A DNA stretch of 64,000 bases from Spirochaetaceae bacterium UBA6089 (GTDB taxonomy: Bacteria; Spirochaetota; Spirochaetia; Treponematales; Rectinemataceae). The notes under the pieces are model-generated. The model was given only the letters and a program-made list of their open reading frames with translations, was not told where the DNA came from and did not search any database. Of the stretch, positions 4,836-20,039 are shown in pieces; the stretch's first letter is position 1; each line of letters begins with the position of its first letter. The stretch lies in the NCBI GenBank assembly GCA_002435985.1, contig DIXD01000024.1, forward strand, positions 13,167 to 77,166, read 5' to 3'. Position numbers and translations under genes: made by a program.

Positions 4836-7800
4836 AAATCCGCAACAAAGAATATGTGAAGGTTTCTCTTCTTTGGGTCTTCGGCATATTCATATTTGTT
4901 CTATTTACGGTGCTCATTGCCTCTCCCTTTATCCTCTGGATTATGCAGCCCTACCGTCAGCTCGATATCTGGGTCGTCGACAAAACTGTGCCGTACCCGG
5001 ATTTTAGAGAGCACGCGGGCCTGTTTTGGCTGCTGAACAATGAGAAGATCTCCAAGCCGGGTACGAAGGTGTTGTACGATGTGCGAACGGATTACTACGG
5101 ATTTTATCCCTTTGCCAAGGATGAGTGGCGGACCATCCCGATACCTCGGGGTGCAAAAAGGCCTGACCTCATTTATATCGCGGATACCTATGGTGTCTAT
5201 CGCGACGATTACATGCAGAAAAAGCTCCCGAATGATTTTTCTTCGATCATATACGGCGGCTTAGACAATGATGACTATACTACCATCCAGGAGTCTCTGG
5301 GCGATGGGAACACACTTATCGCCGAGTTCAACACTGCGGCGTCGCCGACCAATGGCAGGGATCGGGCACTTTTTGGCCGTCTTATAGGACTTAAATGGTA
5401 TGGATGGATAGGGAATTATTACGAAAGCCTCGCGAAGAACGGCGGTGTTCCCGACTGGGTCGTCGAGAATTGGGAGACCGAAAGAAACCAGATATGGGAA
5501 TATTCGGGACGAGGCATCGTGCTGCTCGACGAGGGTGGCAGGGTCGAGGTACTCACTGAGCAAGAAGACATCGGCAAGAACGGAATGAAAGTGGTATTCG
5601 AGCAACAGTGGGCTAAGACGATCGGCATACAGAAGCCTACTTCATACCGTTACTGGTTCGAATGGGTAAGTACCGATCCACTTGTCGAGGAAATCGCACA
5701 CTATGATCTCGATTTGACTCCTTCTGGAAAGCACAAGCTCGACGCCCTGGGGTTGCCCAATGTTTTTCCCGCAGTGGTACGATTCAAGAACAATCAATGT
5801 ACCAGCTGGTATTTTGCAGGCGACTTCGCTGATCTACAGTTTTCGGGTACCACCTACCGTATGAGGGGCATCCAGACCATAAAGCGCGTGCTGGCCGACG
5901 ACACCGTGGACAACAACAGCTATTTCTTTTGGAACGTGTATGCACCACTCATGCATTACATTCTCTCCACCATTGAACGACACAAGGTAGATGCGGAGGC
6001 GACGATGAAACCGCCCGAGCTGCAGGTAAATGTACGGGCGGTAAAAGAAGGCTTCCAGTTGAAATCGACAGAAGGAGAATGGCGTACGATCTTTCTCCGC
6101 AGCGTTAACCTGGGTATCGCCGAGCCGGGGAAATATTTTACGAATTTTCCTTCCGACAGCGATACCTATGTGCGCTGGCTTGAGGATATAGGCAGACTTG
6201 GGGCGAATACGGTGCGCGTCTATACCTTGTTGCCACCGGAATTCTACCGCGCGCTCAAGATCTATAACCAGACCCATCCGGACAGACCCCTCTTTTTGTT
6301 GCAGGAGATATGGCCCGAAGAGCACCCGCCCGGCAACGATTATCTGCAGCCTGCATACCAGGAAGCGTATTTGAAGGAAATACAGTATGCCATCGATGCG
6401 GTGTACGGCAGAGCGAATGTTCCCCAGCGTACGGGGCGTGCGTGGGGTTTGTATTCCGTGGATGTCTCGCAGTGGCTCATAGGCTGGCTTGTGGGCAGAG
6501 AGCTCGAAAGCGCCGAAGTAATGCAGACCGATGCATCTCATCAAGGTGTGACGTATACCGGCAACTATGTGTCGGCAGGGCAGGGGGCCTCGCCGACAGA
6601 GGTGTGGCTCGCAGCGTCGCTCGATGCGGCGGCGATGGCGGAGGCGGAACGCTACGGGACTTTACACCCTGTGGGCATCGTGAGCTGGCCTACATTGGAT
6701 CCCCTCGAGCATGATACGGAGTGGGATCCCGAAACAGGCAAACGTAACCGCTGGAATGACCGAGCGAGTGTCTCGATAGAGCATCTCGATGTCACCGAAA
6801 AGATGGGCGCAGGGCTCTTCGGTGCCTATCATATTTACCCAAACTATCCGGACTTCATCGTCAACGAACCTGCCTATGATAGGTACCACGATCAATTCGG
6901 CGTACTGCGGTACGGGGGCTATCTCGAGGAATTCATGACGACGCACACTCGCTACCCCGCCGTTGTTGCGGAATTTGGCATGGCTAACGGCGCGGGGGTG
7001 GCACATATCTCATCCGACGGGCTCAACCATGGAGGCGTCGACGAGACCACTGCCGGCAGGGATATTCTGCGCATGTATACGGCTATCCAAAAGACAGGGT
7101 ACGCAGGTGCATCGATCTTTGAGTTCATGGATGAGTGGGCAAAGAAAACCTGGGTTACCGAACCTTTTATGATACCCTTCGATCGCAGAGTCTTGTGGCA
7201 TAATGTCGTCGATCCCGAGCAGAATTACGGCCTCATCGCCAACGAGGCAGTGCCACCCACGCTCATTGAGCAGCAAATTCAAGGGATCGAGGTGTTGTCG
7301 GATCTAGAGGTTATGCACGACGCCTCGTATCTCTATCTCACGCTCCGGCTGGCGGGATTGAAGTCGCCGACGGAGTATGAAATTCTCCTTGGTATCGATA
7401 CCTATGACCGCACGCTGGGACAGATGCGCTGGCCCGGGAATTTAGACAAGACGGCCTCGGGGTTGGAATTCCTTCTCGATATCAAAAACAATGAGGCTAG
7501 ATTGTTGGTTATTCCATCGTACAATATCGCCTCATCGAAATACGCGTCGACCCTTCGCCGCGACGGCATGTTTGAAGAAATCAGTATGCTGGTCAACGGT
7601 ACAGTCACGACGAAAGATGGCAGAGTCATACCCGAAAAGCGCTTCGATGCCTCACATATGCGGCAGGGATCCTTCGATGAAGCCGGTAATCTCTGGTACG
7701 TCGAAGGGAATTCGATCCATGTACGCATACCGTGGAATCGTCTCAACGTGACGGATCCCTCTTCGCTCAGAGTGCTGCACGACACACGAAATATAGGCTC

Positions 7801-8065
7801 GCCCGAAACGGATATGCTCAGGACGACACGCACGGACGGCTTTGTGTTCGATGCGCGCGTACTCGATCCCGCGACGCGAGCACAGGTGGGGAGCCTAAAC
7901 GCAAATACGGGCTCTCCCTATATGTGGCAAGGATGGGAGGAGACCCCTCCATACCGTAAACGGATCAAGAAGAGCTACATGATAGTCCGCGATGCATGGG
8001 AGCAGGAAGCCGAAAAGGAAAAGGCCATCCTCGTCGATTTTGTAGGGACAAAAGAGGCGCGGTGA
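4832..8065 (+). CDS. Membrane-anchored fusion: uncharacterised N-terminal domain plus clan GH-A-like TIM-barrel glycoside hydrolase and C-terminal domain
   Basis: N-terminal TM; RSVNLG, GANTVRVYT, GRELE (putative acid/base), YHIYPNYP, VAEFG (putative nucleophile), FEFMDEW, EQNYGL. ATGA overlap. Confidence 0.75.
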   Translation: MKIRNKEYVKVSLLWVFGIFIFVLFTVLIASPFILWIMQPYRQLDIWVVDKTVPYPDFREHAGLFWLLNNEKISKPGTKVLYDVRTDYYGFYPFAKDEWRTIPIPRGAKRPDLIYIADTYGVYRDDYMQKKLPNDFSSIIYGGLDNDDYTTIQESLGDGNTLIAEFNTAASPTNGRDRALFGRLIGLKWYGWIGNYYESLAKNGGVPDWVVENWETERNQIWEYSGRGIVLLDEGGRVEVLTEQEDIGKNGMKVVFEQQWAKTIGIQKPTSYRYWFEWVSTDPLVEEIAHYDLDLTPSGKHKLDALGLPNVFPAVVRFKNNQCTSWYFAGDFADLQFSGTTYRMRGIQTIKRVLADDTVDNNSYFFWNVYAPLMHYILSTIERHKVDAEATMKPPELQVNVRAVKEGFQLKSTEGEWRTIFLRSVNLGIAEPGKYFTNFPSDSDTYVRWLEDIGRLGANTVRVYTLLPPEFYRALKIYNQTHPDRPLFLLQEIWPEEHPPGNDYLQPAYQEAYLKEIQYAIDAVYGRANVPQRTGRAWGLYSVDVSQWLIGWLVGRELESAEVMQTDASHQGVTYTGNYVSAGQGASPTEVWLAASLDAAAMAEAERYGTLHPVGIVSWPTLDPLEHDTEWDPETGKRNRWNDRASVSIEHLDVTEKMGAGLFGAYHIYPNYPDFIVNEPAYDRYHDQFGVLRYGGYLEEFMTTHTRYPAVVAEFGMANGAGVAHISSDGLNHGGVDETTAGRDILRMYTAIQKTGYAGASIFEFMDEWAKKTWVTEPFMIPFDRRVLWHNVVDPEQNYGLIANEAVPPTLIEQQIQGIEVLSDLEVMHDASYLYLTLRLAGLKSPTEYEILLGIDTYDRTLGQMRWPGNLDKTASGLEFLLDIKNNEARLLVIPSYNIASSKYASTLRRDGMFEEISMLVNGTVTTKDGRVIPEKRFDASHMRQGSFDEAGNLWYVEGNSIHVRIPWNRLNVTDPSSLRVLHDTRNIGSPETDMLRTTRTDGFVFDARVLDPATRAQVGSLNANTGSPYMWQGWEETPPYRKRIKKSYMIVRDAWEQEAEKEKAILVDFVGTKEAR

Positions 8066-8095
8066 TATATAGTCAGAGAAGAAAGGAAAGCACAG

Positions 8096-9214
8096 ATGGA
8101 AGATCTACGACTTAGAAAACTCGCTCATCTCTTGGTGAATTACTCGACCAAGGTCAAGCCCGGCGACAGGGTGCTCATCGAAAATGTGAACCCTGAGCCC
8201 GATTTTCTGCGCCTGCTCATCGAGGAGGTACATGCGGCCGGCGGGCTCGCCTTCCTCTCCCTGCGGGATAGGCGGCTCGAGCGCACGCTTTTTATGAATG
8301 CGCCCGAGGAGCAGTTTGTGCTGCAGGCCGAATTCGAGCGCGCCCGCATGGAAGAAATGAATGTCTATATCGGCTTTACGAGCTTGCAGAACGCCTTCGC
8401 GTGGGAGGACCTACCGCAGGACAAAATCGAGCTCTATAATCGTCACATCTGGAAAAAAGTGCACATAGAGCGGCGCATCACCAACACCCGATGGGTCGTC
8501 CTGCGCTACCCGAGCGCGGCCATGGCCCAGAACGCCGGTATGAGCGAGGAGCGCTTCGAACAATTTTATTTTGATGTCTGCACCATGGACTATGCCAAGA
8601 TGTCCCGCGCCATGGACGCCCTCGTGGGCCTCCTCGAAAAGAGCGACAGGGTCCGCATCGTAGCGCCCGGCACGGACCTTGAATTCTCGATTGCGGGCAT
8701 GCCTGCGATCAAATGCGACGGCACCATGAATATCCCCGATGGTGAGGTCTACACCGCTCCTCTCCGCGAATCGGTGAATGGCGTGCTCAGTTACAACACG
8801 CCGAGCGAAAAGGATGGCTTCAAGTTCGAGAATATCGTCTTCGAGTTCGAGAAAGGCAAAATCGTCGACGCAAAAGCCAACGACACCGCGCGCATCAACA
8901 AGATTCTCGACATCGACGAGGGTGCGCGATATCTTGGTGAATTTTCATTCGGGCTCAACCCGTACATTACAAGGCCGATGCTCGAGACCCTGTTCGACGA
9001 AAAGATTGCAGGCTCACTGCACATCACACCCGGCAATTCGTACGACGACTGCGACAACGGCAACCATTCTGCCCTTCACTGGGACATCGTCCTTATGCAG
9101 GGTGCGGACTCGGGCGGCGGCGAGGTCTGGATCGACGGGGAACTGATACGCAAGGATGGCCTCTTCGTCGTGCCGGAGCTGCTCGCGCTGAATCCCGATG
9201 CCCTGAAAGGCTGA
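8096..9214 (+). CDS. Aminopeptidase, M29 family (AmpS/PepS-like)
   Basis: NIPDGEVYTAP, LGEFSFG, LFDEKIAGSLHITPG, SALHWD motifs. Confidence 0.93.
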   Translation: MEDLRLRKLAHLLVNYSTKVKPGDRVLIENVNPEPDFLRLLIEEVHAAGGLAFLSLRDRRLERTLFMNAPEEQFVLQAEFERARMEEMNVYIGFTSLQNAFAWEDLPQDKIELYNRHIWKKVHIERRITNTRWVVLRYPSAAMAQNAGMSEERFEQFYFDVCTMDYAKMSRAMDALVGLLEKSDRVRIVAPGTDLEFSIAGMPAIKCDGTMNIPDGEVYTAPLRESVNGVLSYNTPSEKDGFKFENIVFEFEKGKIVDAKANDTARINKILDIDEGARYLGEFSFGLNPYITRPMLETLFDEKIAGSLHITPGNSYDDCDNGNHSALHWDIVLMQGADSGGGEVWIDGELIRKDGLFVVPELLALNPDALKG

Positions 9215-9267
9215 GCTTCCTGGCATCGGTGAATCGGTGAAGTGCGCTGCCTACGAAGCCTTCTGTA

Positions 9268-9498
9268 TTATTCACCATCGTCGCCGATAGCCTGGACAGG
9301 GCACTCCTCCTGCGCCTGGACCGCGAGGCTGGTCTCTTCTGCTGTTTCGGGCTGGCGTACCACGATGGCCTGCCCCTCGTTGTTCAGCGCAAATATATCG
9401 GGTGCAGTCGATGTACACAGGCCACAGCCGGTACACGAGGCGTCGACATACCATTTACCTTTTACATTATCCGGAAGTCTGGCTGACTTGTCGGCCAT
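9268..9498 (-). CDS. Single-cluster ferredoxin
   Basis: CTGCGLC...CP motif, 76 aa, AGGAG SD. Confidence 0.9.
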   Translation of the reverse strand: MADKSARLPDNVKGKWYVDASCTGCGLCTSTAPDIFALNNEGQAIVVRQPETAEETSLAVQAQEECPVQAIGDDGE

Positions 9499-9604
9499 AC
9501 GTATCTCCTTTGCCGGAAAACCGGCCTTTTTGGATCTCTGTTCCCTAAAAATACTATTGTGGCCCGGCGATCGACTATAACTATTATTACGAAACCATTC
9601 TTAC

Positions 9605-9640
9605 AAAAAAGGGGGCCGCCCGGTACGTGGGCGGCCCTTT
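9605..9640 (-). terminator. Intrinsic terminator downstream of hsp20
   Basis: 9-bp stem GGGCCGCCC (9613-9621)/GGGCGGCCC (9629-9637) followed on the minus strand by CCTTTTTT. Confidence 0.85.
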
Positions 9641-9647
9641 CCCGTGG

Positions 9648-10073
9648 TCAGTCGATTTTTACCTCAATGGCTTTCGGCGCAGCTTCGGGCTTCTTGGGTA
9701 TGGTGACCTGCAATACTCCGTTCTTGAAGTGAGCCTCGATGGCGTGTGTATCGACATCATCAGGCAGTGAGAAGGTCCGTACGAACCGGAAATCTCGACG
9801 CTCTCTGCGGATCCAGCCTTTCTTGGATTTCTCCGATTTATCCTCGGATTTTTCACTCTTCGCGGTGGAAAGAGTGAGCTGTCCACCACGCACTTCGAGC
9901 TTGATATCCTTTTCGCTCAACCCGGGGAGCTCAGCCTCGAGCATGTATTTGTCGCCCTCTTCGTAGACGTCGATTACCGGGGTGCGGAACCTCGGCGTGG
10001 AGAACCAGTCATCGTTGAAGAATCTCTCCATTAGCTCAAAGGGATTGTTTTCATACACCTGCAAGCCATCCAT
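9648..10073 (-). CDS. Small heat-shock protein (Hsp20/alpha-crystallin family)
   Basis: IDVYEE...ELPGL...RER...F.RTFSLP...AHFKNGVLQVTIPK, C-terminal IEV motif, GGAGG SD. Confidence 0.95.
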   Translation of the reverse strand: MDGLQVYENNPFELMERFFNDDWFSTPRFRTPVIDVYEEGDKYMLEAELPGLSEKDIKLEVRGGQLTLSTAKSEKSEDKSEKSKKGWIRRERRDFRFVRTFSLPDDVDTHAIEAHFKNGVLQVTIPKKPEAAPKAIEVKID

Positions 10074-10171
10074 AAGTGACCTCCATTATGCGGTGAATCT
10101 CGGCGGATGTAGATCCTCACGGGATCCTGACAATCCGTCCGGAGCCCTATTCGGCGCTCATTTATAGTATC

Positions 10172-10188
10172 AGCAAGAAATATGCCAA
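10172..10188 (-). promoter_or_regulatory. Sigma54 (-24/-12) promoter of hsp20
   Basis: Minus strand TTGGCATATTTCTTGCT has exact GG-N10-GC spacing, about 100 nt upstream of the ATG, next to an AT-rich tract. Confidence 0.75.
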
Positions 10189-10329
10189 AATAAAAAAATA
10201 ATAATAATTCATACTTTATTGTAATATATAGAATTAAATTTACTACTGCTGAGTCTTAACTGCCTGGCTTTTGAGAGCGCTCTTCGTTGGGCCTGTATGA
10301 AACGGCGCTTGTGCCAAGCAGCCTTTCTC

Positions 10330-10390
10330 TGTATATCCGAACGACACACATGTATTAAAATGAACCATTCGTCTGTATATAATTGAAACA
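10330..10390. promoter_or_regulatory. Three TGT-N11-ACA boxes (putative bEBP upstream activator sites)
   Basis: TGTatatccgaacgACA (10330-10346), TGTattaaaatgaaCCA (10351-10367), TGTatataattgaaACA (10374-10390), spaced 21 and 23 bp. Confidence 0.6.
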
Positions 10391-10456
10391 AATGGCCGAC
10401 AAAACCCTCTCGTGGTTGTCCGTGCAGTGTGCTTTCATGCCGGCAGAACAGCCCCC

Positions 10457-10504
10457 CTAGTGCTCTCAACCTTGTGCAAAGGCCAAGAAGGTTGAGAGCA
10501 CTAG
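10457..10504. repeat. 17-bp perfect inverted repeat (hairpin) 3' of the ABC fusion gene
   Basis: CTAGTGCTCTCAACCTT (10457-10473) and AAGGTTGAGAGCACTAG (10488-10504), 14-nt loop, no U-tract. Confidence 0.85.
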
Positions 10505-10517
10505 CCACGTCGTGCGC

Positions 10518-12251
10518 CTACGTATTCTGGCGCCACCTCAGAAGATATGCCTCGATGGCGTCGATGATCAGATAGAGGACTAGACCGAACAGAGAAAGAG
10601 CGAGGATGGCCGCATACATATCGGGGTAATCGATGCGCGACCACGCGTCCATGATGTACCAGCCGAGCCCGTCGATGGAAGCGAAAGTCTCCGAGAGGAA
10701 GAGCACGGCGATGGCGGTTCCCATGCTGACGCGGAGCGCGGACATGAGCTCCGGGATCGTGGAGGGTACAATCGCCAGTCTGACGATCGAGAGGCGGGAA
10801 AAACCGAGGATTCTTACGCTGTCGAGCAGGGCAGGAGCGATGCTCTTGGCGGCGTCGCGGCCTGTGACGAAGAGCTGGCCGAAGATGACAAGCCCCATCA
10901 AAGCGACTTTCGAAGCGTCGCCAAGCCCCAAAAAGAGCATGAGGATGGGAAGGAAGGCCACCTTCGGCATCGGGTGGAAGAAGTATATGAGGGGGGCGAA
11001 GAAGTTGTCGAAGAAACGAATCCGCCCGGCCAGGAGCCCTAGCGTCCACGCAAGAGGCCCGGCTGCCAATAGGGCGAGGAAGACGCGCCGGGCCGAGGCC
11101 AGCACATGGACCTGGAAGACACCCTTTTGAAAGTTCTCCGAAAAGCTGGCGAAGGCGAGCCGAGGTGAGGGCAAAAAAGGCCGATTCATGAGCGCGGCGG
11201 CAGCCCACCACACCATACAGATGAATATCGCCGCGGCGAGTATCTGCGCAGTTCTCCTCAAAAAATTCGAGACCGAAGGCGAAAGCCCCGAAGCTGAGCC
11301 TGCCGGGGCAGTTCCGCCTTTTATCTTTGGAGTAGCGTTCTGTGCGGTCTGCGCCTTCCGTGTCACCGCCTCATCGAAGGTTCGGCGGAGTCTGCCCACT
11401 GCGGAGAGGTACGACGCGTGCTGACGAGGATCAGATTGGCCTAAAGGCTCAGAGGAACCAGGGGAAGATTGCGTCGAATGGCCCTGATCGGAATGGCCCT
11501 GATCTGAATGATATTGATCCGGATAGCCCTGATCCGCCGCCCCGGCGGCGAGTGTCTGCTGCTTTTGTGCTGGAATATCCGGCTTGCTCGGCGCCTGTTC
11601 CCACACGTGGGGATTGTGCACCACCGTACAGCCTTGTACCGGCGTGCTGCCGTCGAGGACGAGGATATCGTCGGCCAGATACACCGCCTCTTCGATCGAG
11701 TGCGTGACGAGGACAATGGTCGTGTGGTGCGCGCGCTGGATCGTGCGCAGCATGTCCTGGACCGACTCACGCGTCAGCGCATCGAGGCTCGAGAATGGTT
11801 CGTCCATAAGGATGAGGTCTGCCTCGATGGCGAGAGCCCTGGCGACCGAAACTCTCTGCTGCATGCCTCCCGAAAGTCGCACCGGGTATACTTTTCGCCA
11901 CTGAGAAAGCCCGAGCTCTTCGAGGATGTCGCAGACTCTTCTGCGGCGCTCCTCGGCAGGTATGCCGAGGGCCTCGAGCCCCAGACCTGCGTTCCGTTCG
12001 ACGGTCAGCCAGGGCAAAAGGCCGAAATCCTGAAAGATGAAGCCGATCCTCGACCGCTGTGTCTGGATACTGCCCCCCTGAGGAGATAAAAGACCGGCGA
12101 TGAGCCGCAGGAGTGTCGTCTTGCCGCAGCCGGACGGGCCTATAACCGCCGTGATTCGCTCTTGCTCGAAGTAGGCCGAAAAATGTTCGAAGACGGGGAT
12201 CGGATTCCCGCGGACGGTATAAGAAAAACTGATGTTGTCGAGGCTTACCAT
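10518..12251 (-). CDS. NitT/TauT-family ABC transporter, fused ATPase and permease
   Basis: Walker A GPSGCGKT, LSGGMQQR, ILMDEPFSSLD, VTH; then a low-complexity linker; then an SsuC/TauC-type permease (PMPKVAFLP, EAA-like LLDSVRILG, GLGWYI). Confidence 0.9.
   Translation of the reverse strand: MVSLDNISFSYTVRGNPIPVFEHFSAYFEQERITAVIGPSGCGKTTLLRLIAGLLSPQGGSIQTQRSRIGFIFQDFGLLPWLTVERNAGLGLEALGIPAEERRRRVCDILEELGLSQWRKVYPVRLSGGMQQRVSVARALAIEADLILMDEPFSSLDALTRESVQDMLRTIQRAHHTTIVLVTHSIEEAVYLADDILVLDGSTPVQGCTVVHNPHVWEQAPSKPDIPAQKQQTLAAGAADQGYPDQYHSDQGHSDQGHSTQSSPGSSEPLGQSDPRQHASYLSAVGRLRRTFDEAVTRKAQTAQNATPKIKGGTAPAGSASGLSPSVSNFLRRTAQILAAAIFICMVWWAAAALMNRPFLPSPRLAFASFSENFQKGVFQVHVLASARRVFLALLAAGPLAWTLGLLAGRIRFFDNFFAPLIYFFHPMPKVAFLPILMLFLGLGDASKVALMGLVIFGQLFVTGRDAAKSIAPALLDSVRILGFSRLSIVRLAIVPSTIPELMSALRVSMGTAIAVLFLSETFASIDGLGWYIMDAWSRIDYPDMYAAILALSLFGLVLYLIIDAIEAYLLRWRQNT
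11475..11534 (-). repeat. 4 x 15-nt coding tandem repeat (DQGYP DQYHS DQGHS DQGHS)
   Basis: Plus-strand units cgaatggccctgatc, ggaatggccctgatc, tgaatgatattgatc, cggatagccctgatc. Confidence 0.9.
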
Positions 12252-13174
12252 CCGCTTACCATGCCTGCATCGACGAGGTCGGCGGGCTTTGGCAGTACCT
12301 TGACGAGGCCCTTCGAGAAGAGCCAGTTTTCGGCGCTCTCGATGCCTGCGAGAGACGGAAGGCGCGGCTTCTCGTAGACAGGAAACACAAAGGCGCGGGC
12401 CGCATCCTCAGGGAAGCTGAGCGAATCGACGAGCATCTGTCTGTATTGGTCGGGATTGGCGTTGATGCGCTGGGCCGCCTTCCAGTACGCGCGGTAAAAC
12501 CGTTGTATCGCGACGGTATTCTTTGCAATAACCGAAGGTGGAAAGGCGATGACGCCTGCCTCAAGCCCCGAGTCGTCCGAGGAAATGAGAACTTTTGCCC
12601 CGCGGAGCTTTGCCGCGGTGAGGAACGGCTCAGGTAGAACCGCGGCAGGGATCTGGTCAGAGAGCAGCATTTCGAGGCGCACCGGCATCTTCGGCACCGG
12701 AACCAAGGTAAGGGAGTTTTGATCGAGCCCCGCGCGCTCTGCGCTCCAGTCGGCGAAGTAATGGATGATGGTGTTGAGGGATACGGCCACGTTCTTTCCC
12801 CCGAGCTCTTTCATGGACTGAATGTTCGATTTGGGAGAGACCGCGACCCCGTAGCGACCATTCGTGAGGCTCGTGATCTTAAGTGGAAAACCTCCCTGAT
12901 TCGCGAGCACGACGGCAAGCACATCGGTTACCGCGCCGTCGATTTTCCCCGCCTGCAGGGCCGAGTCGCGCTCGACCGCGCTCGAGAAGCGCACGAGGTT
13001 GACCTCGACGCCTTCGCGCTGAAACAGGCCCTCGTTCGTCGCCACGATGAGCGGAAGGGAATCGGCATCCGCGAAGATTCCGATGCGCAAGGGACCGGCT
13101 GTCTGCACCGAAGGCTGCGCCCAGGGCTGCACAAGCGCCGCGAGCGCAATCAGGAAAACAGAAAATATTTTCAT
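12245..13174 (-). CDS. ABC substrate-binding protein, SsuA/THI5-like
   Basis: Signal peptide MKIFSVFLIALAALVQPWA; LRIG...DSLPL..A...GLF..EGVEV; ALQAGKIDG; LPEP. Start could instead be 13201. Confidence 0.85.
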   Translation of the reverse strand: MKIFSVFLIALAALVQPWAQPSVQTAGPLRIGIFADADSLPLIVATNEGLFQREGVEVNLVRFSSAVERDSALQAGKIDGAVTDVLAVVLANQGGFPLKITSLTNGRYGVAVSPKSNIQSMKELGGKNVAVSLNTIIHYFADWSAERAGLDQNSLTLVPVPKMPVRLEMLLSDQIPAAVLPEPFLTAAKLRGAKVLISSDDSGLEAGVIAFPPSVIAKNTVAIQRFYRAYWKAAQRINANPDQYRQMLVDSLSFPEDAARAFVFPVYEKPRLPSLAGIESAENWLFSKGLVKVLPKPADLVDAGMVSGW

Positions 13175-13179
13175 GGGAA

Positions 13180-13785
13180 TTATGGCTCCTCTCGACTCCA
13201 TCTGAAAACATTTTTATCGATAATGCCCAGATGGTCAAGTATCCGATACACGACGGTGTCCACGAGGGATTCGATATCCTTGGGTTTGCCGTAAAAGCTG
13301 GGAGAGGCGGGAAGGATAACGGCGCCCGCTTCCTTGAGCTGGGTCATGGCGCGGAGCGAGATCAGAGAGAGCGGGGTCTCGCGGGGCACGAGAATGAGCG
13401 GCCACCCCTCCTTGAGGGCAACTGCGCCTGCGCGGTGGATGAGGTTTGTACAGGTCCCGCTCGAAATAGCGCCCAGTGTACCCATAGAACAGGGAACGAT
13501 GACGGTGCCCGAGATGCGGAATGAGCCTGAGGCGATGGAAGCGGAAAAATCGCTGTTCTCGTGGAGCCGGATGAGGGTGGGAGCACCTTCCGGGCCGCCC
13601 TGTCGCTGCAGCTTTCCAAGCCAATAGCCCAGCGGCCGGCCTGTCTCTTCCAGAAGCACTCGGGCACCCCACTCGCTCGCCACCACATGGAGAATGACGC
13701 CTCTTGCGGCGAGTGCGGACATGAGGCGTACCGCATAAACGCCACCGGATGCGCCGGTTATGCAGACGAGGTAGCGAATAGGCAT
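13180..13785 (-). CDS. ubiX: Flavin prenyltransferase UbiX (MqnM-like)
   Basis: ITGASG, IASGS, PCSMGTL, NLIHRA, RETPL, PSFY motifs. Confidence 0.95.
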   Translation of the reverse strand: MPIRYLVCITGASGGVYAVRLMSALAARGVILHVVASEWGARVLLEETGRPLGYWLGKLQRQGGPEGAPTLIRLHENSDFSASIASGSFRISGTVIVPCSMGTLGAISSGTCTNLIHRAGAVALKEGWPLILVPRETPLSLISLRAMTQLKEAGAVILPASPSFYGKPKDIESLVDTVVYRILDHLGIIDKNVFRWSREEP

Positions 13786-13794
13786 AGCTGTATT

Positions 13795-14799
13795 CTAGCG
13801 TACGTAAATATCTAAGGCAACACCGAATAGATAGATAATTGGAAGAATCTGATTCAGCGTGTAGGCCGCCAGTTTGATACGGTGCTCGGTTTTTTGGACC
13901 GCAATGAGCTGCTCCGCCACAAGAAGAACAAAACAGAGCGCAAGGGCGATGGCCGTAAAGAGTCCTGGCGTTTCCCAGAAATAGTAAATGCTTGCGAAGC
14001 CCAACAATGCACCCGTGTGACTCAGTGCGGCGAAGATGCGGCCGCCGGTCTCGCCGAAACGGGCCGGAATCGAATAGAGGTGCTCCTTTCGGTCGAATTC
14101 GATGTCCTGAAGTGCATAGAGGATATCGAATCCTGCGACCCAGAGGGCTACGCCCGCAGTGAGGGGAAAGTAGCGCAGCTGAAATGTTCCTGAAATGCCC
14201 AAGAAAGCGCCCATGGTGGCGGCCGAGCAGGCGATGCCGAGCCAGTAGTGGGACAGCCACGTAAAGCGCTTCGTGTACGAGTATCCGAAGAGGAGGACAC
14301 CTGCGACGGGCAAGAGCATGACGCAGAGCGGGTTGAGCATCGCCGCGCCGAGCACGAGGAGGGCGAGCATGAATGCGGTGAAGAGCCAGAGGTCTCGAGG
14401 TTTGAGTCGGCCGCTCGGTAGGTGCCGACCTGCGGTGCGGGGGTTTTTCGAGTCGATATCCTTGTCGATGATGCGGTTGAGGGCGTTGGCTGCGTTGCGC
14501 GCCCCAAAGGCGGCGACGACAATCCAGAAGAGTTTCCAGAACGGGGGCCGGCCGTCGGTCTCCAGCAGTATCGCGCTGATCACGAATGGAAGTGAAAAGA
14601 GCGTGTGGGAGATCATCACGGAGTCGCCAATGGCGCCGAGACGCCGGAAAGGGCTGCGCCCCTCGGCAGTACCTGTGGCTCGCCCGACATCTTGTACTGA
14701 GCTCCGTGCCTTTGGGCTTATATCAATAGGCTCCCCACAAGGCGCACTTTGTGGCGCCCCCGTCGGCGCACCGTCAATGTTTTGTCTGTCCGATGCCAT
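13795..14799 (-). CDS. ubiA: UbiA-family prenyltransferase (MqnP-like)
   Basis: HTLFSLPF, NRIIDKDIDSKNPRT..RHLP, YSYTKRFT, GFDILYALQDIEFD. Start placed at ATG 14799, overlapping the ubiD end. Confidence 0.9.
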   Translation of the reverse strand: MASDRQNIDGAPTGAPQSAPCGEPIDISPKARSSVQDVGRATGTAEGRSPFRRLGAIGDSVMISHTLFSLPFVISAILLETDGRPPFWKLFWIVVAAFGARNAANALNRIIDKDIDSKNPRTAGRHLPSGRLKPRDLWLFTAFMLALLVLGAAMLNPLCVMLLPVAGVLLFGYSYTKRFTWLSHYWLGIACSAATMGAFLGISGTFQLRYFPLTAGVALWVAGFDILYALQDIEFDRKEHLYSIPARFGETGGRIFAALSHTGALLGFASIYYFWETPGLFTAIALALCFVLLVAEQLIAVQKTEHRIKLAAYTLNQILPIIYLFGVALDIYVR

Positions 14800-16240
14800 A
14801 GTCTTTCCAGCGAGCATTGACGAGTTCGACGATGTCGGTGCGCATCGCGAGCGGATCCGGCCACTCTCGCTCGTGACCTTCCTCCGGCCACTTGTGCGTC
14901 GCATCGATGCCGAGGCGGGTACCGAAGCGCGGCGCAGGCGATGCATGGTCGAGCGCGTCGAGCGGTCCTTTTGAAAACACGAGGTCGCGCTCTGCGTCGA
15001 TGTTGTTGAAGACCTTCCAGGCGACCGCCGAGAGGTCCTGCAGGGAAACATCGTCGTCCACCACTACGATCAGCTTTGTGTACATGAGCTGGCCCATGCC
15101 CCAGAGGAAGTTCATGACCTTGCGCGCCTGGCCCGGATAGCGCTTGTGGATCGACACGAGGACGCAGTTGTGGAAGACGCCTTCGATGGGCATGTTGATG
15201 TCGCGGATCTCCGGGCAGAGCTGTTTGAGGAGGGGCAAAAAGAGGCGCTCCGTGGCCTTTGCGAGGAAGCAGTCCTCCTTCGGCGGAATGCCGACGATGG
15301 TCGCGGGGTACACGGGGTTCTCTCGCCGCGTCATGCGCTCGAGATGGAAAACCGGATACTCGTCGGGCAGGGAATAGAAACCGGTGTGGTCTCCGAATGG
15401 CCCTTCGAGGCGGAATTCTTCGGGGTCGACGTAGCCTTCGAGGATGAACTCGGCGTCCGCGGGCGCGAGGATGCCCGTATCGCCGATCTCGACGACGTCG
15501 GCCGCTCTGCCGCGCAAAAAGCCCGCGAACATCGCCTCCCAAATGCCCTCGGGCAGGGGGGCGGTGGCGGCGTAGGTGACTGCGGGATCTCCGCCCAGGG
15601 CGACGATGACGGGCATGCGGCGTCTCTGCGCCTGGTATTTCTGGAAGAAGTGCGCGCCGTCCTTGTGGATGTGCCAGTGCATGCCGGCGGTCCGATCGTC
15701 GTACACCTGCATGCGGTACATCCCCCAGTTTTGGGCACCTGTCTCGGGGTCGACCGTACAGACGACAGGCAGGGTGAGAAAGCGCCCGCCGTCCTGCGGC
15801 CAGCACTGAATGACGGGGAGGCTGTCGAAGCCCCTTTCATCCTCAACGGCGCGGCAGGGTGCGCGCCGCACCTTTTTGGGCATGAGGGAGCGCGCTATAG
15901 GCAGTTTGGGGAGTGCCTCGGGGATGGCCGAAAGCAGCGAAAAATCTCGCAGCTGGCTCCAAGCCCAGCCGATGAGCGATTCGATCTCGCTCGCCTTGTC
16001 GTCAAGACTCTCGGCGCCGAGCGACCATGCCATCCGCTTTTCGGATCCGTAGGCGTTGATGAGCAGCGGCCAGGCGGACCCGCGCACATGCTCGAAGAGC
16101 AGGGCAGGGCCGCCCTCCTTCATCACCCTGTCGGCGATTTCGGTGATTTCGAGGATAGGATCGACTTCGGCGGATATCCTCGCCAGTTCGCCTTTGGAAT
16201 CAAGAAAGGAAATAAATTCCCGTAACCCGCTGTATGCCAT
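14774..16240 (-). CDS. ubiD: UbiD-family decarboxylase (menaquinone biosynthesis decarboxylase, MqnL-like)
   Basis: GGPALLFE, WPQDGGRF, GMYRMQ, EGPFGDHTGFY, LDHAS motifs. Confidence 0.93.
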   Translation of the reverse strand: MAYSGLREFISFLDSKGELARISAEVDPILEITEIADRVMKEGGPALLFEHVRGSAWPLLINAYGSEKRMAWSLGAESLDDKASEIESLIGWAWSQLRDFSLLSAIPEALPKLPIARSLMPKKVRRAPCRAVEDERGFDSLPVIQCWPQDGGRFLTLPVVCTVDPETGAQNWGMYRMQVYDDRTAGMHWHIHKDGAHFFQKYQAQRRRMPVIVALGGDPAVTYAATAPLPEGIWEAMFAGFLRGRAADVVEIGDTGILAPADAEFILEGYVDPEEFRLEGPFGDHTGFYSLPDEYPVFHLERMTRRENPVYPATIVGIPPKEDCFLAKATERLFLPLLKQLCPEIRDINMPIEGVFHNCVLVSIHKRYPGQARKVMNFLWGMGQLMYTKLIVVVDDDVSLQDLSAVAWKVFNNIDAERDLVFSKGPLDALDHASPAPRFGTRLGIDATHKWPEEGHEREWPDPLAMRTDIVELVNARWKDYGIGQTKH

Positions 16241-16248
16241 ACGACTTC

Positions 16249-16277
16249 AGTATAATAACGGAGAGAAGCATATCCAA
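16249..16277 (-). promoter_or_regulatory. Sigma70-type promoter of the ubiD operon (probably leaderless mRNA)
   Basis: TTGGAT-N17-TATACT; ATG lies 8 nt after the -10; no SD. Confidence 0.6.
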
Positions 16278-16387
16278 GACCCAGGGCTCATCTGTTATAA
16301 TTATTCATTTTATTTTCAGGAATTTCATATGGAATGAGCCTCTAAGAATCGTTAGCATGGAGCTTGAATTTTCGAAAAGGAAGTGCC

Positions 16388-17173
16388 ATGTCGGAGATCA
16401 TCATCAGCCTTGATAAGGTAAGAAAAGTCTACTTCCTCGATACCGTCGAAGTGGAGGCATTGAAAGACATCTCCCTCGATATTCATGCAGGGGACTTTGT
16501 GAGCATCGCAGGCCCTTCGGGATCGGGAAAGACAACGATTTTGAACCTCATCGGCTGTGTCGACAAGCCCACCTCAGGCACGGTCATCGTTCACGGCAAG
16601 CGCACGAGCGACCTCGACGACGATAGCCTGACCGAACTTCGTCATAAGTCCATAGGGTTTATTTTCCAGAGCTTCAACCTCATTCCCGTGCTCAATATCC
16701 GCGAAAACGTGGAGCTGCCTCTCCTTTTGGACGGCCGGTCGGGGAGCGAACACAAGGCCGACCGCAAAGACTGGGTGGACTACCTCATAGAGAGCGTCGG
16801 GCTCAAGGACCGCATGCTGCATAAGCCGGCGGAACTGTCGGGCGGCCAGCGCCAGCGCGTCGCCATTGCCCGCGCCCTTGTGATGAAGCCCGCCATCGTG
16901 CTCGCCGACGAGCCGACCGCCAACCTCGATTCGGCCACGGGCGAGAGCATTCTGCGCCTCATGCGCCACATGAACGAGACCCTCGGCACCACCTTCATCT
17001 TCAGCACGCACGATCCGGACATCGTCGAAGAGGCCGACCACCTCATTCGCCTCCGCGACGGCAGGATCGTCGAAGACCGCAGGATACATGGGAAGACTTC
17101 GATCGATTTTGCCGTGGCGAGGGGCACGAACGAAGCCGTCGACGCCACAGAGACAGAAGGCGGGCAGCCATGA
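16388..17173 (+). CDS. ABC transporter ATP-binding protein, LolD/MacB type
   Basis: GPSGSGKT, FIFQSFNLIP, LSGGQRQRVAIARAL, ADEPTANLD, STHD. Confidence 0.95.
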   Translation: MSEIIISLDKVRKVYFLDTVEVEALKDISLDIHAGDFVSIAGPSGSGKTTILNLIGCVDKPTSGTVIVHGKRTSDLDDDSLTELRHKSIGFIFQSFNLIPVLNIRENVELPLLLDGRSGSEHKADRKDWVDYLIESVGLKDRMLHKPAELSGGQRQRVAIARALVMKPAIVLADEPTANLDSATGESILRLMRHMNETLGTTFIFSTHDPDIVEEADHLIRLRDGRIVEDRRIHGKTSIDFAVARGTNEAVDATETEGGQP

Positions 17174-18669
17174 TCGCAGCTCGGCTGGCGTGGGGCAATC
17201 TCGGCCTCCATCGGCGAAAGTCTCTCCTCATCGGCATGATCATGGGTATGGGCATCCTTATTCTATTTTTGGGGAATTCGCTCATCGATACTGCGCTTTC
17301 GGGCCTTCAGCGCATGTTTGTCCAAGGCTATACCGGGGACCTCATGATCACCGGTCCCACCGAATTTTCCACCACGGTGCTCGGCGAGACGGCGGGGAGC
17401 GAGGAGGTGCTTCCTCACATTGCCCAGATAAAAAAATACGAGGATTTTTTGGCGAGCCGGAGCGATGTTGCGTCGACGCTACCCCTTTTGAGCGGGCAGG
17501 TGTCGTTCGGCATCGGCGAGACCGAGCTCGGCTCCGGGTACTGCTTTGGCGTGAACGTCGAGGACTACCGCAACTTCTTCCCCGACAACGTGACGCTGGT
17601 GAACGGCGACTGGCCTACTACAGATGAGGGACCATGGGTTCTGCTCTCCGAGCCCACACTCGAGCTCATCAATACGAGCGCAGCGAGCCCCGTAGAGCCC
17701 GGCACGAAGATCATCATGTCGGCCCTCGCGAACTCCGCGGGCACCGTCATCCGCGAGGTCACGGTGAAAGGCGTGATCAAGTTCAACCAGAGTAACCAGC
17801 AGCTTGCCGGTATCACCCTGGTCGATGCGGACACCATGCGCGACCTTTTAGGATTTGCGAGCCTCAGGGATGGAGCCCCTGTTCTGTCGGCACAGGAAGC
17901 GGCTTTTGTGGCCGGCTTCGACCCGGAAAGCCTGTTCACCGACCTCTTTGCCGGAAGCGACGGAACGACGGCGAATGGGGTGACCCAGGAAGCCCAAGAC
18001 GCGAAGCAAGGTGACTCGGCGCAGAGCTCTGGGCAGGGCATGAGCTCTTTCTCCGCGCAGACAAGCTTTGTAGCCGACCCCGTGCCCGCGTGGCAGTTTC
18101 TTCTCGTGCGTGTCAAACCAGGGGCAGATGCCTCGAGGCTCATCTCCGACCTTTCGGCCTTCTCGGAGAAAATCGGCGACGGAGACCACGTGCAGGATTG
18201 GATTGCGGGCGCAGGCAGGGTCGCGCGCACTGCGGTGACCATACGTCTCGCCTTCAATCTCCTCGTTGCGGTCGTGGCGGTCGTCGTGGTCATGATCATG
18301 ATGAACGTGCTCGTCATCTCGGTCAATGAGCGGCTCTACGAGATCGGCACGCTCCGGGCGATCGGTGCGAAGCGCCGCGTGGTGCGGAACATGATTTTGT
18401 TCGAGACGACCTTTTTGGCTCTCATCGCGGGGGCAGCAGGCCTGCTCGTCGGCCTTGTTCTGCTTCTGGTCCTGGGAAAGATAGGGATAAGGGCGCCGAA
18501 TCTATTCTTCGAGGCGTTGTTCGGGGGACAGGTACTTAAGCCGATGGTGTCCGGCAGGGCGGCGATCACCGCCTTCCTCTGGATTCTGGCGATGGGGCTC
18601 GGCGCGTCGTGGTATCCGACCATCGTCGCGCTGCGGATCGAGCCGGTTGTCGCCATGAGAGGAGACTGA
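17170..18669 (+). CDS. FtsX/LolE-type ABC permease
   Basis: AWGNL..HRRKS plus TM, large periplasmic domain, SVNERLYEIGTLRAIGA, C-terminal IEPVVAMR. Confidence 0.9.
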   Translation: MIAARLAWGNLGLHRRKSLLIGMIMGMGILILFLGNSLIDTALSGLQRMFVQGYTGDLMITGPTEFSTTVLGETAGSEEVLPHIAQIKKYEDFLASRSDVASTLPLLSGQVSFGIGETELGSGYCFGVNVEDYRNFFPDNVTLVNGDWPTTDEGPWVLLSEPTLELINTSAASPVEPGTKIIMSALANSAGTVIREVTVKGVIKFNQSNQQLAGITLVDADTMRDLLGFASLRDGAPVLSAQEAAFVAGFDPESLFTDLFAGSDGTTANGVTQEAQDAKQGDSAQSSGQGMSSFSAQTSFVADPVPAWQFLLVRVKPGADASRLISDLSAFSEKIGDGDHVQDWIAGAGRVARTAVTIRLAFNLLVAVVAVVVVMIMMNVLVISVNERLYEIGTLRAIGAKRRVVRNMILFETTFLALIAGAAGLLVGLVLLLVLGKIGIRAPNLFFEALFGGQVLKPMVSGRAAITAFLWILAMGLGASWYPTIVALRIEPVVAMRGD

Positions 18670-18671
18670 AA

Positions 18672-20039
18672 ATGCGCCTGATACACTTGAAGCTCGCAGC
18701 GCGGAATGTGCGCAGACAGCCTCACAGAACGATTGCACTCGGCGGAGCGGTGGCGTTCAGCGCCCTCGTCATGGCCCTGATCTTGGGTTTTGTGAACGGC
18801 ATGGATCTCGCGATCCAGAACAACGTGACGCTCTACTCCGGAGGCCATGTGCTTGTTTCAGGCTATACCGCAAGCCAAAGCGGCAGGCTCCAAAACAGGT
18901 TTACCGACGATACCGTCGTGAAGATCGTAGAGAGCACGAAGGCCGATATCCTCACGGTTTCGCCCATCGCACAGTCCAGGGCTACCGTCGTATTCGGGAC
19001 CCGGGAGATTCAGCTTATGCTCCGCGGTGTCGACTGGTCCAGGGATCAGCTCTACCACGAATCGCTGATACTCACCGAGGGCGACTGGAAGGGGCTCGAG
19101 GATTCCCGCACGATGCTCATGAGCGGCCAGACTGCGGAGCGGTTCGGCCTTGCCGCCGGAGATCGGGTGATCGTACGGCTCTCCACAGCCTCGGGCCAGC
19201 AGAATGTCACGGACTACAAAGTCGCCGCGATATACGACGACAGGGCTGCGGGCGGCATGAATACGGCCTTCGTCGCCTTCGGGGACCTTGCCGCGGACCT
19301 GAACATGAAATCGAACGAGCAGCAACAGATTGCGGTCTTTCTGAACAACAGCGCCGCTGCAGAGGAAGCCGCACAGGCCATCGCGGCGGGGCTTTCGGCG
19401 CAGGGATTTGCCGTAAGCCGGGGATCGGCGTCGAATGACGGCGCCTTAGGTGCGGCCACTCCACAGGATGCGTCTATTATACCGGACGCCTTCCAAGCAA
19501 CCGGGGGCACGCAGGGGGGCGCGAATCGACGCCTCGCGCCGGGAACAGCCGTCTACCGCATCTCCACAGTCCAGGAACTTGCAGGCGAAATCGGCGCTGC
19601 TCTCGGCTCTATCCGCTGGATCGGCTATGCGGTCTTTGCCCTCATGCTCCTCGGGAGCGCGACCGGCATCTCGAACTCGTACCATATGGTGCTGCTCGAG
19701 CGGACCAAGGAGATCGGCATGCTGCGCTGCATCGGATATAAGAAAAAGGACATATTTTCTTCTTTCGTTTGGGAAGGGATATTGCTTGCGGGCGGCGCAG
19801 CCCTGGTCGGCATTGTCCTCGCCCTGCCGATAGGATTCGGCATCGGCCTTATTCCTTTTGATCCACACGGAGATTTCGGGGCTGCGCTTGTGCAGGGGCA
19901 TCTGCGATTTGCACCTACCCTGGGCCAGTTTCTGTTGATTTTGGTTTTTGTGACGACTGTGGCGATCGCCGCAGTCTTTGTGCCCGCCCGGAGAGCGGCC
20001 GATGTCGTGCCCGTCGAGGCACTGAGAAAAACTGCATAG
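18672..20039 (+). CDS. FtsX/LolE-type ABC permease (second subunit)
   Basis: AARNVRRQPHRT, ERTKEIGMLRCIG, PARRAA...PVEALR. ATG 18672 follows GAGGAG. Confidence 0.9.
   Translation: MRLIHLKLAARNVRRQPHRTIALGGAVAFSALVMALILGFVNGMDLAIQNNVTLYSGGHVLVSGYTASQSGRLQNRFTDDTVVKIVESTKADILTVSPIAQSRATVVFGTREIQLMLRGVDWSRDQLYHESLILTEGDWKGLEDSRTMLMSGQTAERFGLAAGDRVIVRLSTASGQQNVTDYKVAAIYDDRAAGGMNTAFVAFGDLAADLNMKSNEQQQIAVFLNNSAAAEEAAQAIAAGLSAQGFAVSRGSASNDGALGAATPQDASIIPDAFQATGGTQGGANRRLAPGTAVYRISTVQELAGEIGAALGSIRWIGYAVFALMLLGSATGISNSYHMVLLERTKEIGMLRCIGYKKKDIFSSFVWEGILLAGGAALVGIVLALPIGFGIGLIPFDPHGDFGAALVQGHLRFAPTLGQFLLILVFVTTVAIAAVFVPARRAADVVPVEALRKTA

Follow-up and report, generated by a model that had tools for sequence, protein, structure and literature searches.

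A candidate importer of a quinone ring precursor encoded with late futalosine-type genes in a Rectinema-like spirochaete

The window analysed here, a 64,000-nucleotide stretch of DNA, comes from the MAG of a Rectinema-like spirochaete that is only 79.7% complete, which counts against the interpretation. Five closely packed genes on its minus strand (16240–10518) encode, in order, a UbiD-type decarboxylase, a UbiA-family prenyltransferase, a UbiX-type flavin prenyltransferase, a substrate-binding protein (SBP), and a fused ABC transporter. The transporter is predicted from sequence to import a quinone ring precursor, a reading to which we assign a probability of about 0.6, and the five genes probably constitute one salvage operon. 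The features are as follows:

14774..16240, minus strand: ubiD/mqnL, 488 aa; prFMN-dependent, futalosine-type (SCO4490 family) decarboxylase; Pfam UbiD_N/UbiD/UbiD_C
13795..14799, minus strand: MqnP-like UbiA-family aromatic prenyltransferase; Pfam UbiA, 170 bits
13180..13785, minus strand: ubiX/mqnM, 201 aa; flavin prenyltransferase, prFMN for UbiD; Pfam Flavoprotein, 127 bits
12245..13174, minus strand: NMT1/SsuA (NitT/TauT)-type SBP, secreted, periplasmic, 309 aa; Pfam NMT1 (69.6 bits) and NMT1_2
10518..12251, minus strand: fused ABC ATPase-permease, 577 aa; Pfam ABC_tran (103 bits) and BPD_transp_1 (63 bits)
16241..16363, no strand: intergenic region, 123 bp, AT-rich, common to a divergent lolD-like gene and the operon

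The preliminary description of a tightly packed or overlapping ubiD-ubiA-ubiX-SBP-ABC array on one strand holds for all five genes, which are separated, in gene order, by −26, +9, +5 (or −22), and −7 nt. The ubiA reading frame is open back to 15051; a GGAAAG motif lies upstream of the ATG at 14799, which is probably, with some uncertainty, the start and gives the 26-nt overlap with the ubiD stop. An alternative SBP start at ATG 13201 would yield 318 aa, and the database copy begins at the second methionine. The intergenic region contains two sigma-70-like matches on the minus strand (16328–16300 and 16276–16249) and probably holds the operon's promoter. No Rfam family was matched in 9000–17500.

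The UbiD homologue passes the cut-off of TIGR03701, “menaquinone biosynthesis decarboxylase” (594.1 bits versus 495.9), and fails that of the Escherichia coli-type UbiD model PRK10922 (390 bits versus 788); among 14 control genomes, only those of Thermus and Deinococcus, both of which use the futalosine route, pass TIGR03701. The UbiA homologue passes TIGR01475, “UbiA-like polyprenyltransferase” (254 bits versus 180.8), and its best named matches are the MqnP models NF041586, NF041585, and NF041584 (245, 204, and 187 bits versus cut-offs of 430, 375, and 420), with none of these three MqnP-specific NCBIfam cut-offs reached. UbiX passes TIGR00421 (174.4 bits versus 108.9).

Conservation of the arrangement was assessed in 58 related spirochaete loci with enough flanking sequence. 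The ubiD-ubiA-ubiX-SBP-ABC order is kept in 42 of these, with SBP identity down to 44% and a reach that extends to Sphaerochaeta, which argues that the arrangement is not due to chance. Thirteen loci are unlinked, two (L051 and L077) have ubiX alone beside the SBP gene, and no other neighbouring gene is broadly conserved across the loci. In a panel of 121 sampled Treponematales genomes, MqnL scores above its cut-off in 43 and 46 have an SBP orthologue (score of at least 160 bits), 45 of them together with MqnL, unlinked cases included; the related genomes of this panel are non-independent, and these counts overstate the statistical weight. Both genes are kept apart from one another in about a dozen genomes, and MqnL was found elsewhere in the genome for five of five “unlinked” SBP loci. 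The only clear case of MqnL without an SBP orthologue (G104) has ubiD-ubiA-ubiX, and among 72 sampled MqnL-negative genomes an SBP orthologue was found in none but one fragmented assembly. The shared phylogenetic profile and conserved linkage of SBP and MqnL anticipated in the preliminary description are thus borne out, and the co-occurrence persists when the genes are unlinked. Module carriers include the cultured Breznakiella homolactica RmG30 and Rectinema subterraneum, and many carriers, judged by record titles, inhabit termite guts or digesters, which are rich in phenolic acids.

A termite-gut relative (L068) carries the importer in another setting. Its SBP orthologue (45% identity) nests within the clade linked to ubiD-ubiA-ubiX and comes after genes for NDH-2, two FMN-binding proteins, a prenyl synthase, and a MenA-like DHNA prenyltransferase, a FLEET-like locus, in a genome in which MqnL, MqnA/D, and MenB were not found. 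The pairing of the importer with MenA, with no ubiX beside it, indicates that the link is to ring prenylation rather than to prFMN.

The early mqn and men genes, noted before as absent from the window, were sought in the whole assembly, in which no MqnA/D (PF02621), MqnC/E (TIGR03699, which also detects MqnE-like radical SAM proteins), MenB, MenD, or MenA-like match was found. Nor was the early ring pathway found in about 45 MqnL-carrying relatives, most of which are at least 90% complete and one of which (G056) is a single contig, so that the proposed salvage is contradicted by no complete early pathway elsewhere in the MAG or in these relatives. Across the 121 genomes, MqnC is above cut-off in none, genuine MqnA/D occurs in a single genome (G045), and MenB occurs in two, all three occurrences being in MqnL-negative genomes. 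MqnA/D and MenB were also not found in the complete genome of B. homolactica RmG30 or in four further genomes, including a Sphaerochaeta chromosome and R. subterraneum. MenG/UbiE (TIGR01934) is not above cut-off in our MAG or in four other genomes (G056, G126, G091, and G059).

Ubiquinone biosynthesis likewise begins with UbiA, UbiD, and UbiX, which there act on 4-hydroxybenzoate, and the imported ring could instead be a benzoate (4-hydroxybenzoate or another lignin-derived phenolic acid) that yields a polyprenyl-phenol or benzoquinone-type lipid. We consider this unlikely. It would fit the phenolic-acid-rich habitats of many carriers, the unmet MqnP-specific cut-offs, and the finding of UbiC in 0 of the 121 sampled genomes, with which 4-hydroxybenzoate too would have to be imported. 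However, the UbiD homologue passes the futalosine-type cut-off and fails the UbiD one, the UbiA homologue scores higher against the MqnP models (245 bits) than against proteobacterial UbiA (104 bits), and the orthologous SBP of the termite-gut relative is paired with a naphthoate prenyltransferase of the MenA type. The failure to find UbiE/MenG, the sole ubiquinone methyltransferase searched for, also speaks against a benzoate.

The operon holds all the parts of a NitT/TauT-type importer, namely a secreted SBP of the NMT1/SsuA fold, a BPD_transp_1 permease, and an ABC ATPase, each passing its Pfam cut-off. The SBP has an N-terminal signal peptide and lacks a lipobox cysteine. In the fused protein, the ATPase (residues ~1–215) is followed by a low-complexity linker rich in Q, S, H, and D (~215–330) and by the permease (~330–577); relatives have the two parts fused (L004) or as two genes (L002). 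The AF2 model of the SBP (pLDDT 90.8) adopts a type II binding-protein fold with Foldseek TM scores of ~0.7 to SsuA, TauA, and PqqT. Among solved structures, PqqT (PDB 9B1U), which binds the carboxylated quinone PQQ in the periplasm (PMC11331073), gives the best sequence-profile match; identity to the solved relatives, which bind sulfonates, taurine, pyrimidines, or PQQ, is only 15–20%. The SBP falls below the cut-offs of the specificity models SsuA_fam (105 bits versus 163.5), taurine (20.6 versus 304), and SaoX (18.9 versus 300), and no ThiY-type match is listed in the profile search. The SBP family has 44 invariant residues, 22–31 of which are kept by paralogous SBPs in the same genomes.

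Sulfonates, taurine, and thiamine pyrimidines are among the ligands of this fold family, and the transporter might accordingly serve some other need (a flavin or prenol precursor of prFMN, a sulfonate, or a thiamine pyrimidine), with the ring made by an endogenous route from chorismate. Chorismate synthase is present and would allow such a route outside the recognised ones, and the two loci that keep ubiX alone next to the SBP gene would suit a cargo for prFMN. Both of these genomes, however, carry MqnL elsewhere, the importer of the termite-gut relative stands with MenA and no ubiX, and the SBP misses the SsuA, taurine, and related equivalog cut-offs; its near-complete absence from the MqnL-negative genomes is not the pattern expected of a transporter with a general role in sulfur or thiamine supply. 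We therefore regard a cargo other than the ring as quite improbable.

A candidate user of the quinone is encoded on another contig of the same MAG (G000:C80), where a single 675-aa protein joins an NDH-2 to a DoxX-like membrane domain. Residues 15–405 match full-length NDH-2 (4nwz, E 2e-67), and the C-terminal part is a multi-TM domain that carries the precomputed Pfam label DoxX in many homologues. The next gene encodes a HepT-like long-chain prenyl-diphosphate synthase. The two genes occur together in 47 of 48 MqnL-positive genomes and directly adjoin the module in two (G005 and G004), in the second of which ApbE is present as well; in a genome of the same genus (G043), MqnL, the SBP, the NDH-2 fusion, and the second prenyl synthase are missing together. 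Our MAG thus has a FLEET-type core of a dedicated NDH-2 and a HepT-like synthase, in which the role of prenyltransferase would fall to MqnP. FMN-binding proteins and ApbE are present beside the system in relatives (L068 and L093); tblastn with these FMN-binding proteins (L068), standing for the PplA-like component of FLEET, and with ApbE (L093, the FmnB component) gave no match at E 1e-6 in our MAG, which is 80% complete. Cytochrome bd, NuoH, VKOR, and class-2 PyrD were found in none of five genomes tested, our own and two complete genomes included; two of the five, our own not among them, have an SdhA/FrdA-type flavoprotein domain.

These partners bear on a further reading, that the operon detoxifies or catabolises aromatic acids, with UbiD and UbiX decarboxylating an imported phenolic acid in the manner of VdcBC/PAD and the UbiA homologue having an unrelated membrane role. 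UbiX and UbiD do score 177 and 221 bits against the VdcB and VdcC hydroxyarylic acid decarboxylase models, but these values lie far under the cut-offs (290 and 650), and the MqnL model is passed. As ubiA is held between ubiD and ubiX in 42 loci, and a long-chain prenyl synthase and NDH-2, needless for soluble detoxification, are present in 47 of 48 genomes, this reading is highly improbable.

For import of a quinone ring precursor, the following scheme can be drawn. The SBP would capture a soluble aromatic-carboxylate head group released by other microbes, most plausibly 1,4-dihydroxy-6-naphthoate, after which the futalosine route has no further soluble intermediate, or a closely similar naphthoate isomer; we put the odds that it is the 6-naphthoate in particular somewhat below even. 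The fused ATPase-permease would bring the head group into the cell, the MqnP-like membrane UbiA would add a long polyprenyl chain supplied by the HepT-like synthase, and the MqnL-type UbiD would strip the ring carboxylate with prFMN from UbiX. We infer a demethylmenaquinone-like lipoquinone rather than menaquinone as the product because no MenG/UbiE was found. Its use by NDH-2::DoxX would provide an extra route of NADH re-oxidation for an otherwise fermentative spirochaete, and the final acceptor may be FLEET-like periplasmic flavoproteins or oxygen. The preliminary description had the SBP import a naphthoate or other aromatic acid that the cell only prenylates and decarboxylates; the missing early pathway and the linkage largely support this, and the identity of the ligand still stands as a prediction. 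That description covered neither the quinone-using partner nor the missing MenG. More tentatively, ring auxotrophy may be shared by many spirochaetes, both free-living and from guts (Rectinema, Breznakiella, termite-gut Treponema, and Sphaerochaeta), which would import naphthoate leaked by futalosine neighbours, convert it to demethylmenaquinone, and use this with NDH-2::DoxX as a non-respiratory electron outlet; the transporter would then be the first ABC importer of a ring precursor that can be identified.

The operon's pump is a strong and testable candidate for the importer by which microbes take up shared quinone building blocks. Physiological work has documented that quinone precursors are cross-fed, with DHNA feeding lactobacilli and gut isolates (PMC10746273, PMC5738691), and importers of such precursors “remain to be annotated” (Ravcheev and Thiele 2016, PMC4746308). 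As the preliminary description had supposed, no published importer of this kind was found, and phrases for a DHNA or naphthoate transporter are absent from a literature corpus of 8.4 million texts. The operon, which cultured hosts also carry, supplies a specific candidate for expression and titration, and it widens the idea of quinone-precursor salvage from the classical to the futalosine pathway. If the proposal is correct, 1,4-dihydroxy-6-naphthoate would be a “vitamin” exchanged within communities, with DHNA as its parallel. The view of Treponematales as quinone-free fermenters is altered, with ~40% of the sampled genomes carrying the module and a dedicated NADH:quinone reductase. New here are NDH-2::DoxX and the prenyl synthase as the quinone-using partner and the link of the importer in the termite-gut relative to a MenA-type prenyltransferase.

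As an importer, the system resembles the NitT/TauT members SsuABC, TauABC, and ThiXYZ in its type II fold, BPD_transp_1 permease, and TauB/SsuB-like ATPase, and differs from them in the fusion of ATPase and permease and in missing all equivalog cut-offs; PqqT provides a precedent for a type II fold that can hold a polycyclic carboxylated quinone (PMC11331073). Its enzymes resemble the MqnP/MqnL/MqnM module (SCO4491/SCO4490/SCO4492 type), named by Ravcheev and Thiele in 2016 from genomic predictions rather than biochemistry (PMC4746308), in that the same three families are clustered, UbiD passes the equivalog, and UbiA is nearest to the MqnP models. In that study the late trio and the Mqn pathway occur in exactly the same genomes, neither without the other (PMC4746308). 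Whereas the described futalosine organisms have the trio with MqnA–E, here the early genes and MenG were not found and an ABC importer lies in the operon. Lactiplantibacillus plantarum uses exogenous DHNA with a DmkA/DmkB/Ndh2 FLEET locus (PMC10746273, PMC9888254) and is, likewise, a fermenter that does not make the ring but retains a prenyltransferase for it, together with a long-chain prenyl synthase and a dedicated NDH-2; the gene set of the termite-gut relative almost equals that of L. plantarum, including the FMN-binding proteins and the MenA-type enzyme. The spirochaete differs in its phylum, its diderm envelope, and its MqnP-type prenyltransferase, whose need for a separate UbiD/UbiX decarboxylase points to the 6-carboxy isomer. 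It differs, too, in having an uptake system in the operon, whereas the 2023 study of L. plantarum describes the DHNA uptake pathway as “yet to be identified” (PMC10746273).

Profile searches bear out the five-gene operon of the preliminary description, placing five closely spaced genes on the minus strand from 16240 to 10518 of the window:

16240..14774, minus strand: UbiD decarboxylase, matching TIGR03701
ORF open to 15051, likely start ATG 14799, minus strand: UbiA-family prenyltransferase, overlapping the ubiD stop and matching TIGR01475
13785..13180, minus strand: UbiX, passing TIGR00421
13174/13201..12245, minus strand: NMT1/SsuA-type binding protein (Pfam NMT1), Sec signal peptide, lipobox absent
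12251..10518, minus strand: ABC ATPase fused to a BPD_transp_1 importer permease, a single protein of 577 aa with a Q/S/H/D-rich linker

The linker of the fused protein (residues ~215–330; gene at window 10518–12251) is a low-complexity stretch of about 115 residues with repeated "DQGHS"-like units; among relatives, ATPase and permease are fused at loci L004, L075, and L040 and are two genes at L002 and L048. Between the ABC gene and hsp20 lies a 99-aa ORF (window 10209–10508, minus strand) that has no family match and is probably not a gene. No Rfam match to an RNA leader or riboswitch was obtained in window 9000–17500 at an E value of 0.1. Divergent from the operon, from 16364 to 20039 and onward on the plus strand, are genes for a LolD-like ATPase and two FtsX-type permeases, a set joined in relatives by a TP_0789/LolA-like protein; across the Rectinemataceae-like genomes (L002, L004, L005–L016), though not in other families, it stays beside the module, and it may act on the lipoquinone or be no more than syntenic.

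In terms of family assignment, the UbiD protein scores 594 bits against TIGR03701, the equivalog model of the futalosine-type menaquinone decarboxylase MqnL (cut-off 495.9), and 390 bits against the UbiD-proper model, where it fails the cut-off of 788. Of 14 control genomes, just two pass TIGR03701, those of Thermus and Deinococcus, which both use the futalosine route. The UbiA protein passes the broad TIGR01475 model, and its best named matches are three MqnP models, all of whose cut-offs it misses. The binding protein belongs to Pfam NMT1 and falls short of the cut-offs of the SsuA, taurine, and related models. A link to naphthalene carboxylase, suggested by the origin of Rectinema in naphthalene-degrading enrichment cultures, was dropped because the UbiD is of the MqnL type and the literature consulted on it reported nothing relevant.

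The absence of mqnA–E and men genes, noted earlier for the window, extends to the assembly for the proteins looked for: no MqnA/D (PF02621), MqnC/E-like protein, MenB, or true MenD was found in it. As this assembly, placed in Rectinema/Rectinemataceae (Spirochaetota) by the names of its homologues, is an incomplete MAG (1.72 Mb in 119 contigs, 79.7% complete), the searches for the early pathway were repeated on 121 genomes sampled across the order Treponematales. MqnL scores above cut-off in 43 of these genomes, or 48 with contig-end fragments included; most carriers are 90–99% complete, and one (G056) is a single contig. MqnC above cut-off and UbiC chorismate lyase were each found in none of the 121 genomes, genuine MqnA/D was found only in G045, and MenB only in G008 and G079, all three being genomes without MqnL. 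Searches for MqnA/D and MenB were likewise negative in the complete genome of Breznakiella homolactica RmG30, a Sphaerochaeta chromosome, Rectinema subterraneum, and two further genomes. The sole genuine matches of the order sample to MqnC (a partial one, 218 bits) and to MqnA/D (187 bits) share a short contig of G045 (C86:5-1345) and could be contamination or a real remnant of the early pathway. As a chorismate synthase is encoded, the ring could formally still arise by some unrecognized route that starts at chorismate. The reading in which a ring precursor would be imported is supported by the lack of any known ring route among these searches, by the co-occurrence and linkage of the binding protein with MqnL, and by an association at a second type of locus, L068, from a termite-gut spirochaete MAG (Th196P1bin3).

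A scan of species-representative genomes returned 170 relatives of the binding protein, of which 80, all from Spirochaetota, were kept. Upstream sequence of at least 3.3 kb was available for 58 loci, and at 42 of them ubiD-ubiA-ubiX directly precedes the binding-protein gene, a conserved linkage whose absence the preliminary description had named as evidence against import; the remainder have ubiD-ubiA (1), ubiX only (2), or none of the three (13). MqnL is encoded elsewhere in the genome in all five of the "none" genomes examined and in both ubiX-only genomes. The phylogenetic profile proposed earlier was taken up for the binding protein and MqnL on the order sample, in which orthologues of the binding protein (≥160 bits, ≥38% identity) separate cleanly from paralogues (~33%). 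Orthologues occur in 46 genomes, 45 of which have MqnL, the exception being a 690-contig assembly (G063); conversely, an orthologue is clearly missing from only one of the 48 MqnL carriers (G104). About 12 genomes retain MqnL and the binding protein on separate contigs or 10 kb apart. These counts are to be read as a pattern and not as a P-value, since related genomes are not independent; the pattern does repeat in five families. Losses of module parts appear to be joint; in G043, of the same genus, MqnL, the binding protein, the NDH-2 fusion described below, and a second prenyl synthase were all not found.

The ~33%-identical paralogues of MqnL-negative genomes were uninformative, as their surroundings are unrelated and lack a prenyltransferase. 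No other neighbor is broadly conserved across the 80 loci, the only synteny being the lineage-specific Lol-like genes and Hsp20 of Rectinemataceae. In one clade (L040, L061, L066, L071, L075, and L078), a ~1850-aa surface protein carrying Big_5, Big_13, and PKD-like domains (bacterial Ig-like) is inserted between ubiD-ubiA-ubiX and the binding-protein gene, separating the two sets by ~10 kb with both kept.

The AF2 model of the binding protein is confident (pLDDT 90.8), and its structural neighbors are SsuA, TauA, Thi5, ThiY, and PqqT (TM ~0.7, 15–20% identity). An enzymatic role for this NMT1-fold protein, as in THI5, MqnA, or MqnD, was rejected, as a signal peptide is present and an ATPase and permease always follow. 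PqqT, the top profile match among solved sequences (E value of 7e-7), is located in the periplasm and has a Kd of ~60 nM for PQQ, a tricarboxylated quinone (PMC11331073). PqqT shows that the fold can take a ligand of this kind and does not thereby identify the ligand here.

At L068, positions 1557–9535 encode on one strand an NDH-2 fusion, two RnfG/NqrC-like FMN-binding proteins, a polyprenyl synthase, a MenA-like protein, a binding-protein orthologue (45% identity), an ATPase, and a permease, and MqnL, MqnA/D, and MenB were not found in this genome. The MenA-like 1,4-dihydroxy-2-naphthoate prenyltransferase scores 230 bits, below the cut-off of 289. In a quick maximum-likelihood tree, the L068 binding protein nests within the clade linked to ubiD-ubiA-ubiX, sister to that of L080 (SH-aLRT 98%), and it retains 38 of 44 invariant residues, with changes including D45A, D47E, and Y117F. 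L068 is a locus resembling those for flavin-based extracellular electron transfer (FLEET), in a diderm. Where the other type of naphthoate prenyltransferase has taken the place of the ring-processing enzymes, the importer is retained, which links it with the ring substrate rather than with prFMN or one particular enzyme. In G037 and G116, too, the NDH-2 fusion is directly preceded by a MenA-like gene.

The usual quinone consumers, being rare or not found, cannot account for the module: no more than four MqnL carriers have cytochrome bd; VKOR, NuoH, class-2 PyrD (DHODH), and MenG/UbiE were found in none of five test genomes; and SdhA/FrdA was not found in three of the five and is present in two. 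Two variant loci, in G005 and G004, led to a candidate; there, the module adjoins genes for a ~750-aa Pyr_redox_2 protein and a polyprenyl synthase, with ApbE also in G004. The corresponding operon of the present genome lies outside the window:

Contig C80 (L097), 5114-8228: NDH-2::DoxX-like fusion (675 aa), then a HepT-like long-chain polyprenyl diphosphate synthase

Residues 15–405 of the 675-aa protein match full-length type II NADH dehydrogenases (4nwz, E value of 2e-67), as well as Bacillus subtilis YjlD and Staphylococcus aureus NDH-2, and the last 270 residues are a multi-TM domain with the precomputed Pfam label DoxX in many homologues; such a fusion seems not to have been described before. 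The synthase is matched best by hepta-, hexa-, and solanesyl-diphosphate synthases. Of the 121 genomes, 70 have the fusion, among them 47 of the 48 MqnL carriers, and it adjoins the synthase in every locus checked; at least two polyprenyl_synt genes are present in 45 of 48 carriers versus 27 of 73 other genomes. L097:12431-15216, a few kilobases from the NDH-2 operon, encodes a second Pyr_redox_2 protein and a FAD dehydrogenase that is GlpA-like and includes a BFD [2Fe-2S] domain; this might be a glycerol-3-phosphate dehydrogenase complex. The candidate quinone-user pair and the L068 association extend the original proposal of import; the ligand, product, and terminal electron acceptor of the system are ones that we infer.

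MqnP, MqnL, and MqnM were proposed from comparative genomics to catalyze late futalosine steps and were reported in every Mqn-pathway genome and in no others; according to the same paper, importers for soluble precursors of menaquinone "remain to be annotated" (PMC4746308). Our literature search returned no description of such an importer, in agreement with the earlier statement that no characterized one is known for this intermediate, nor of the module in spirochaetes. A parallel case is Lactiplantibacillus plantarum, a quinone auxotroph that uses exogenous DHNA, with Ndh2 and PplA, for extracellular electron transfer and takes up DHNA by a route yet to be found (PMC10746273, PMC9888254). The proposed mode of working is alike in the two; unlike L. 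plantarum, the spirochaete system, from another phylum, has MqnP with a separate decarboxylase and an encoded importer.
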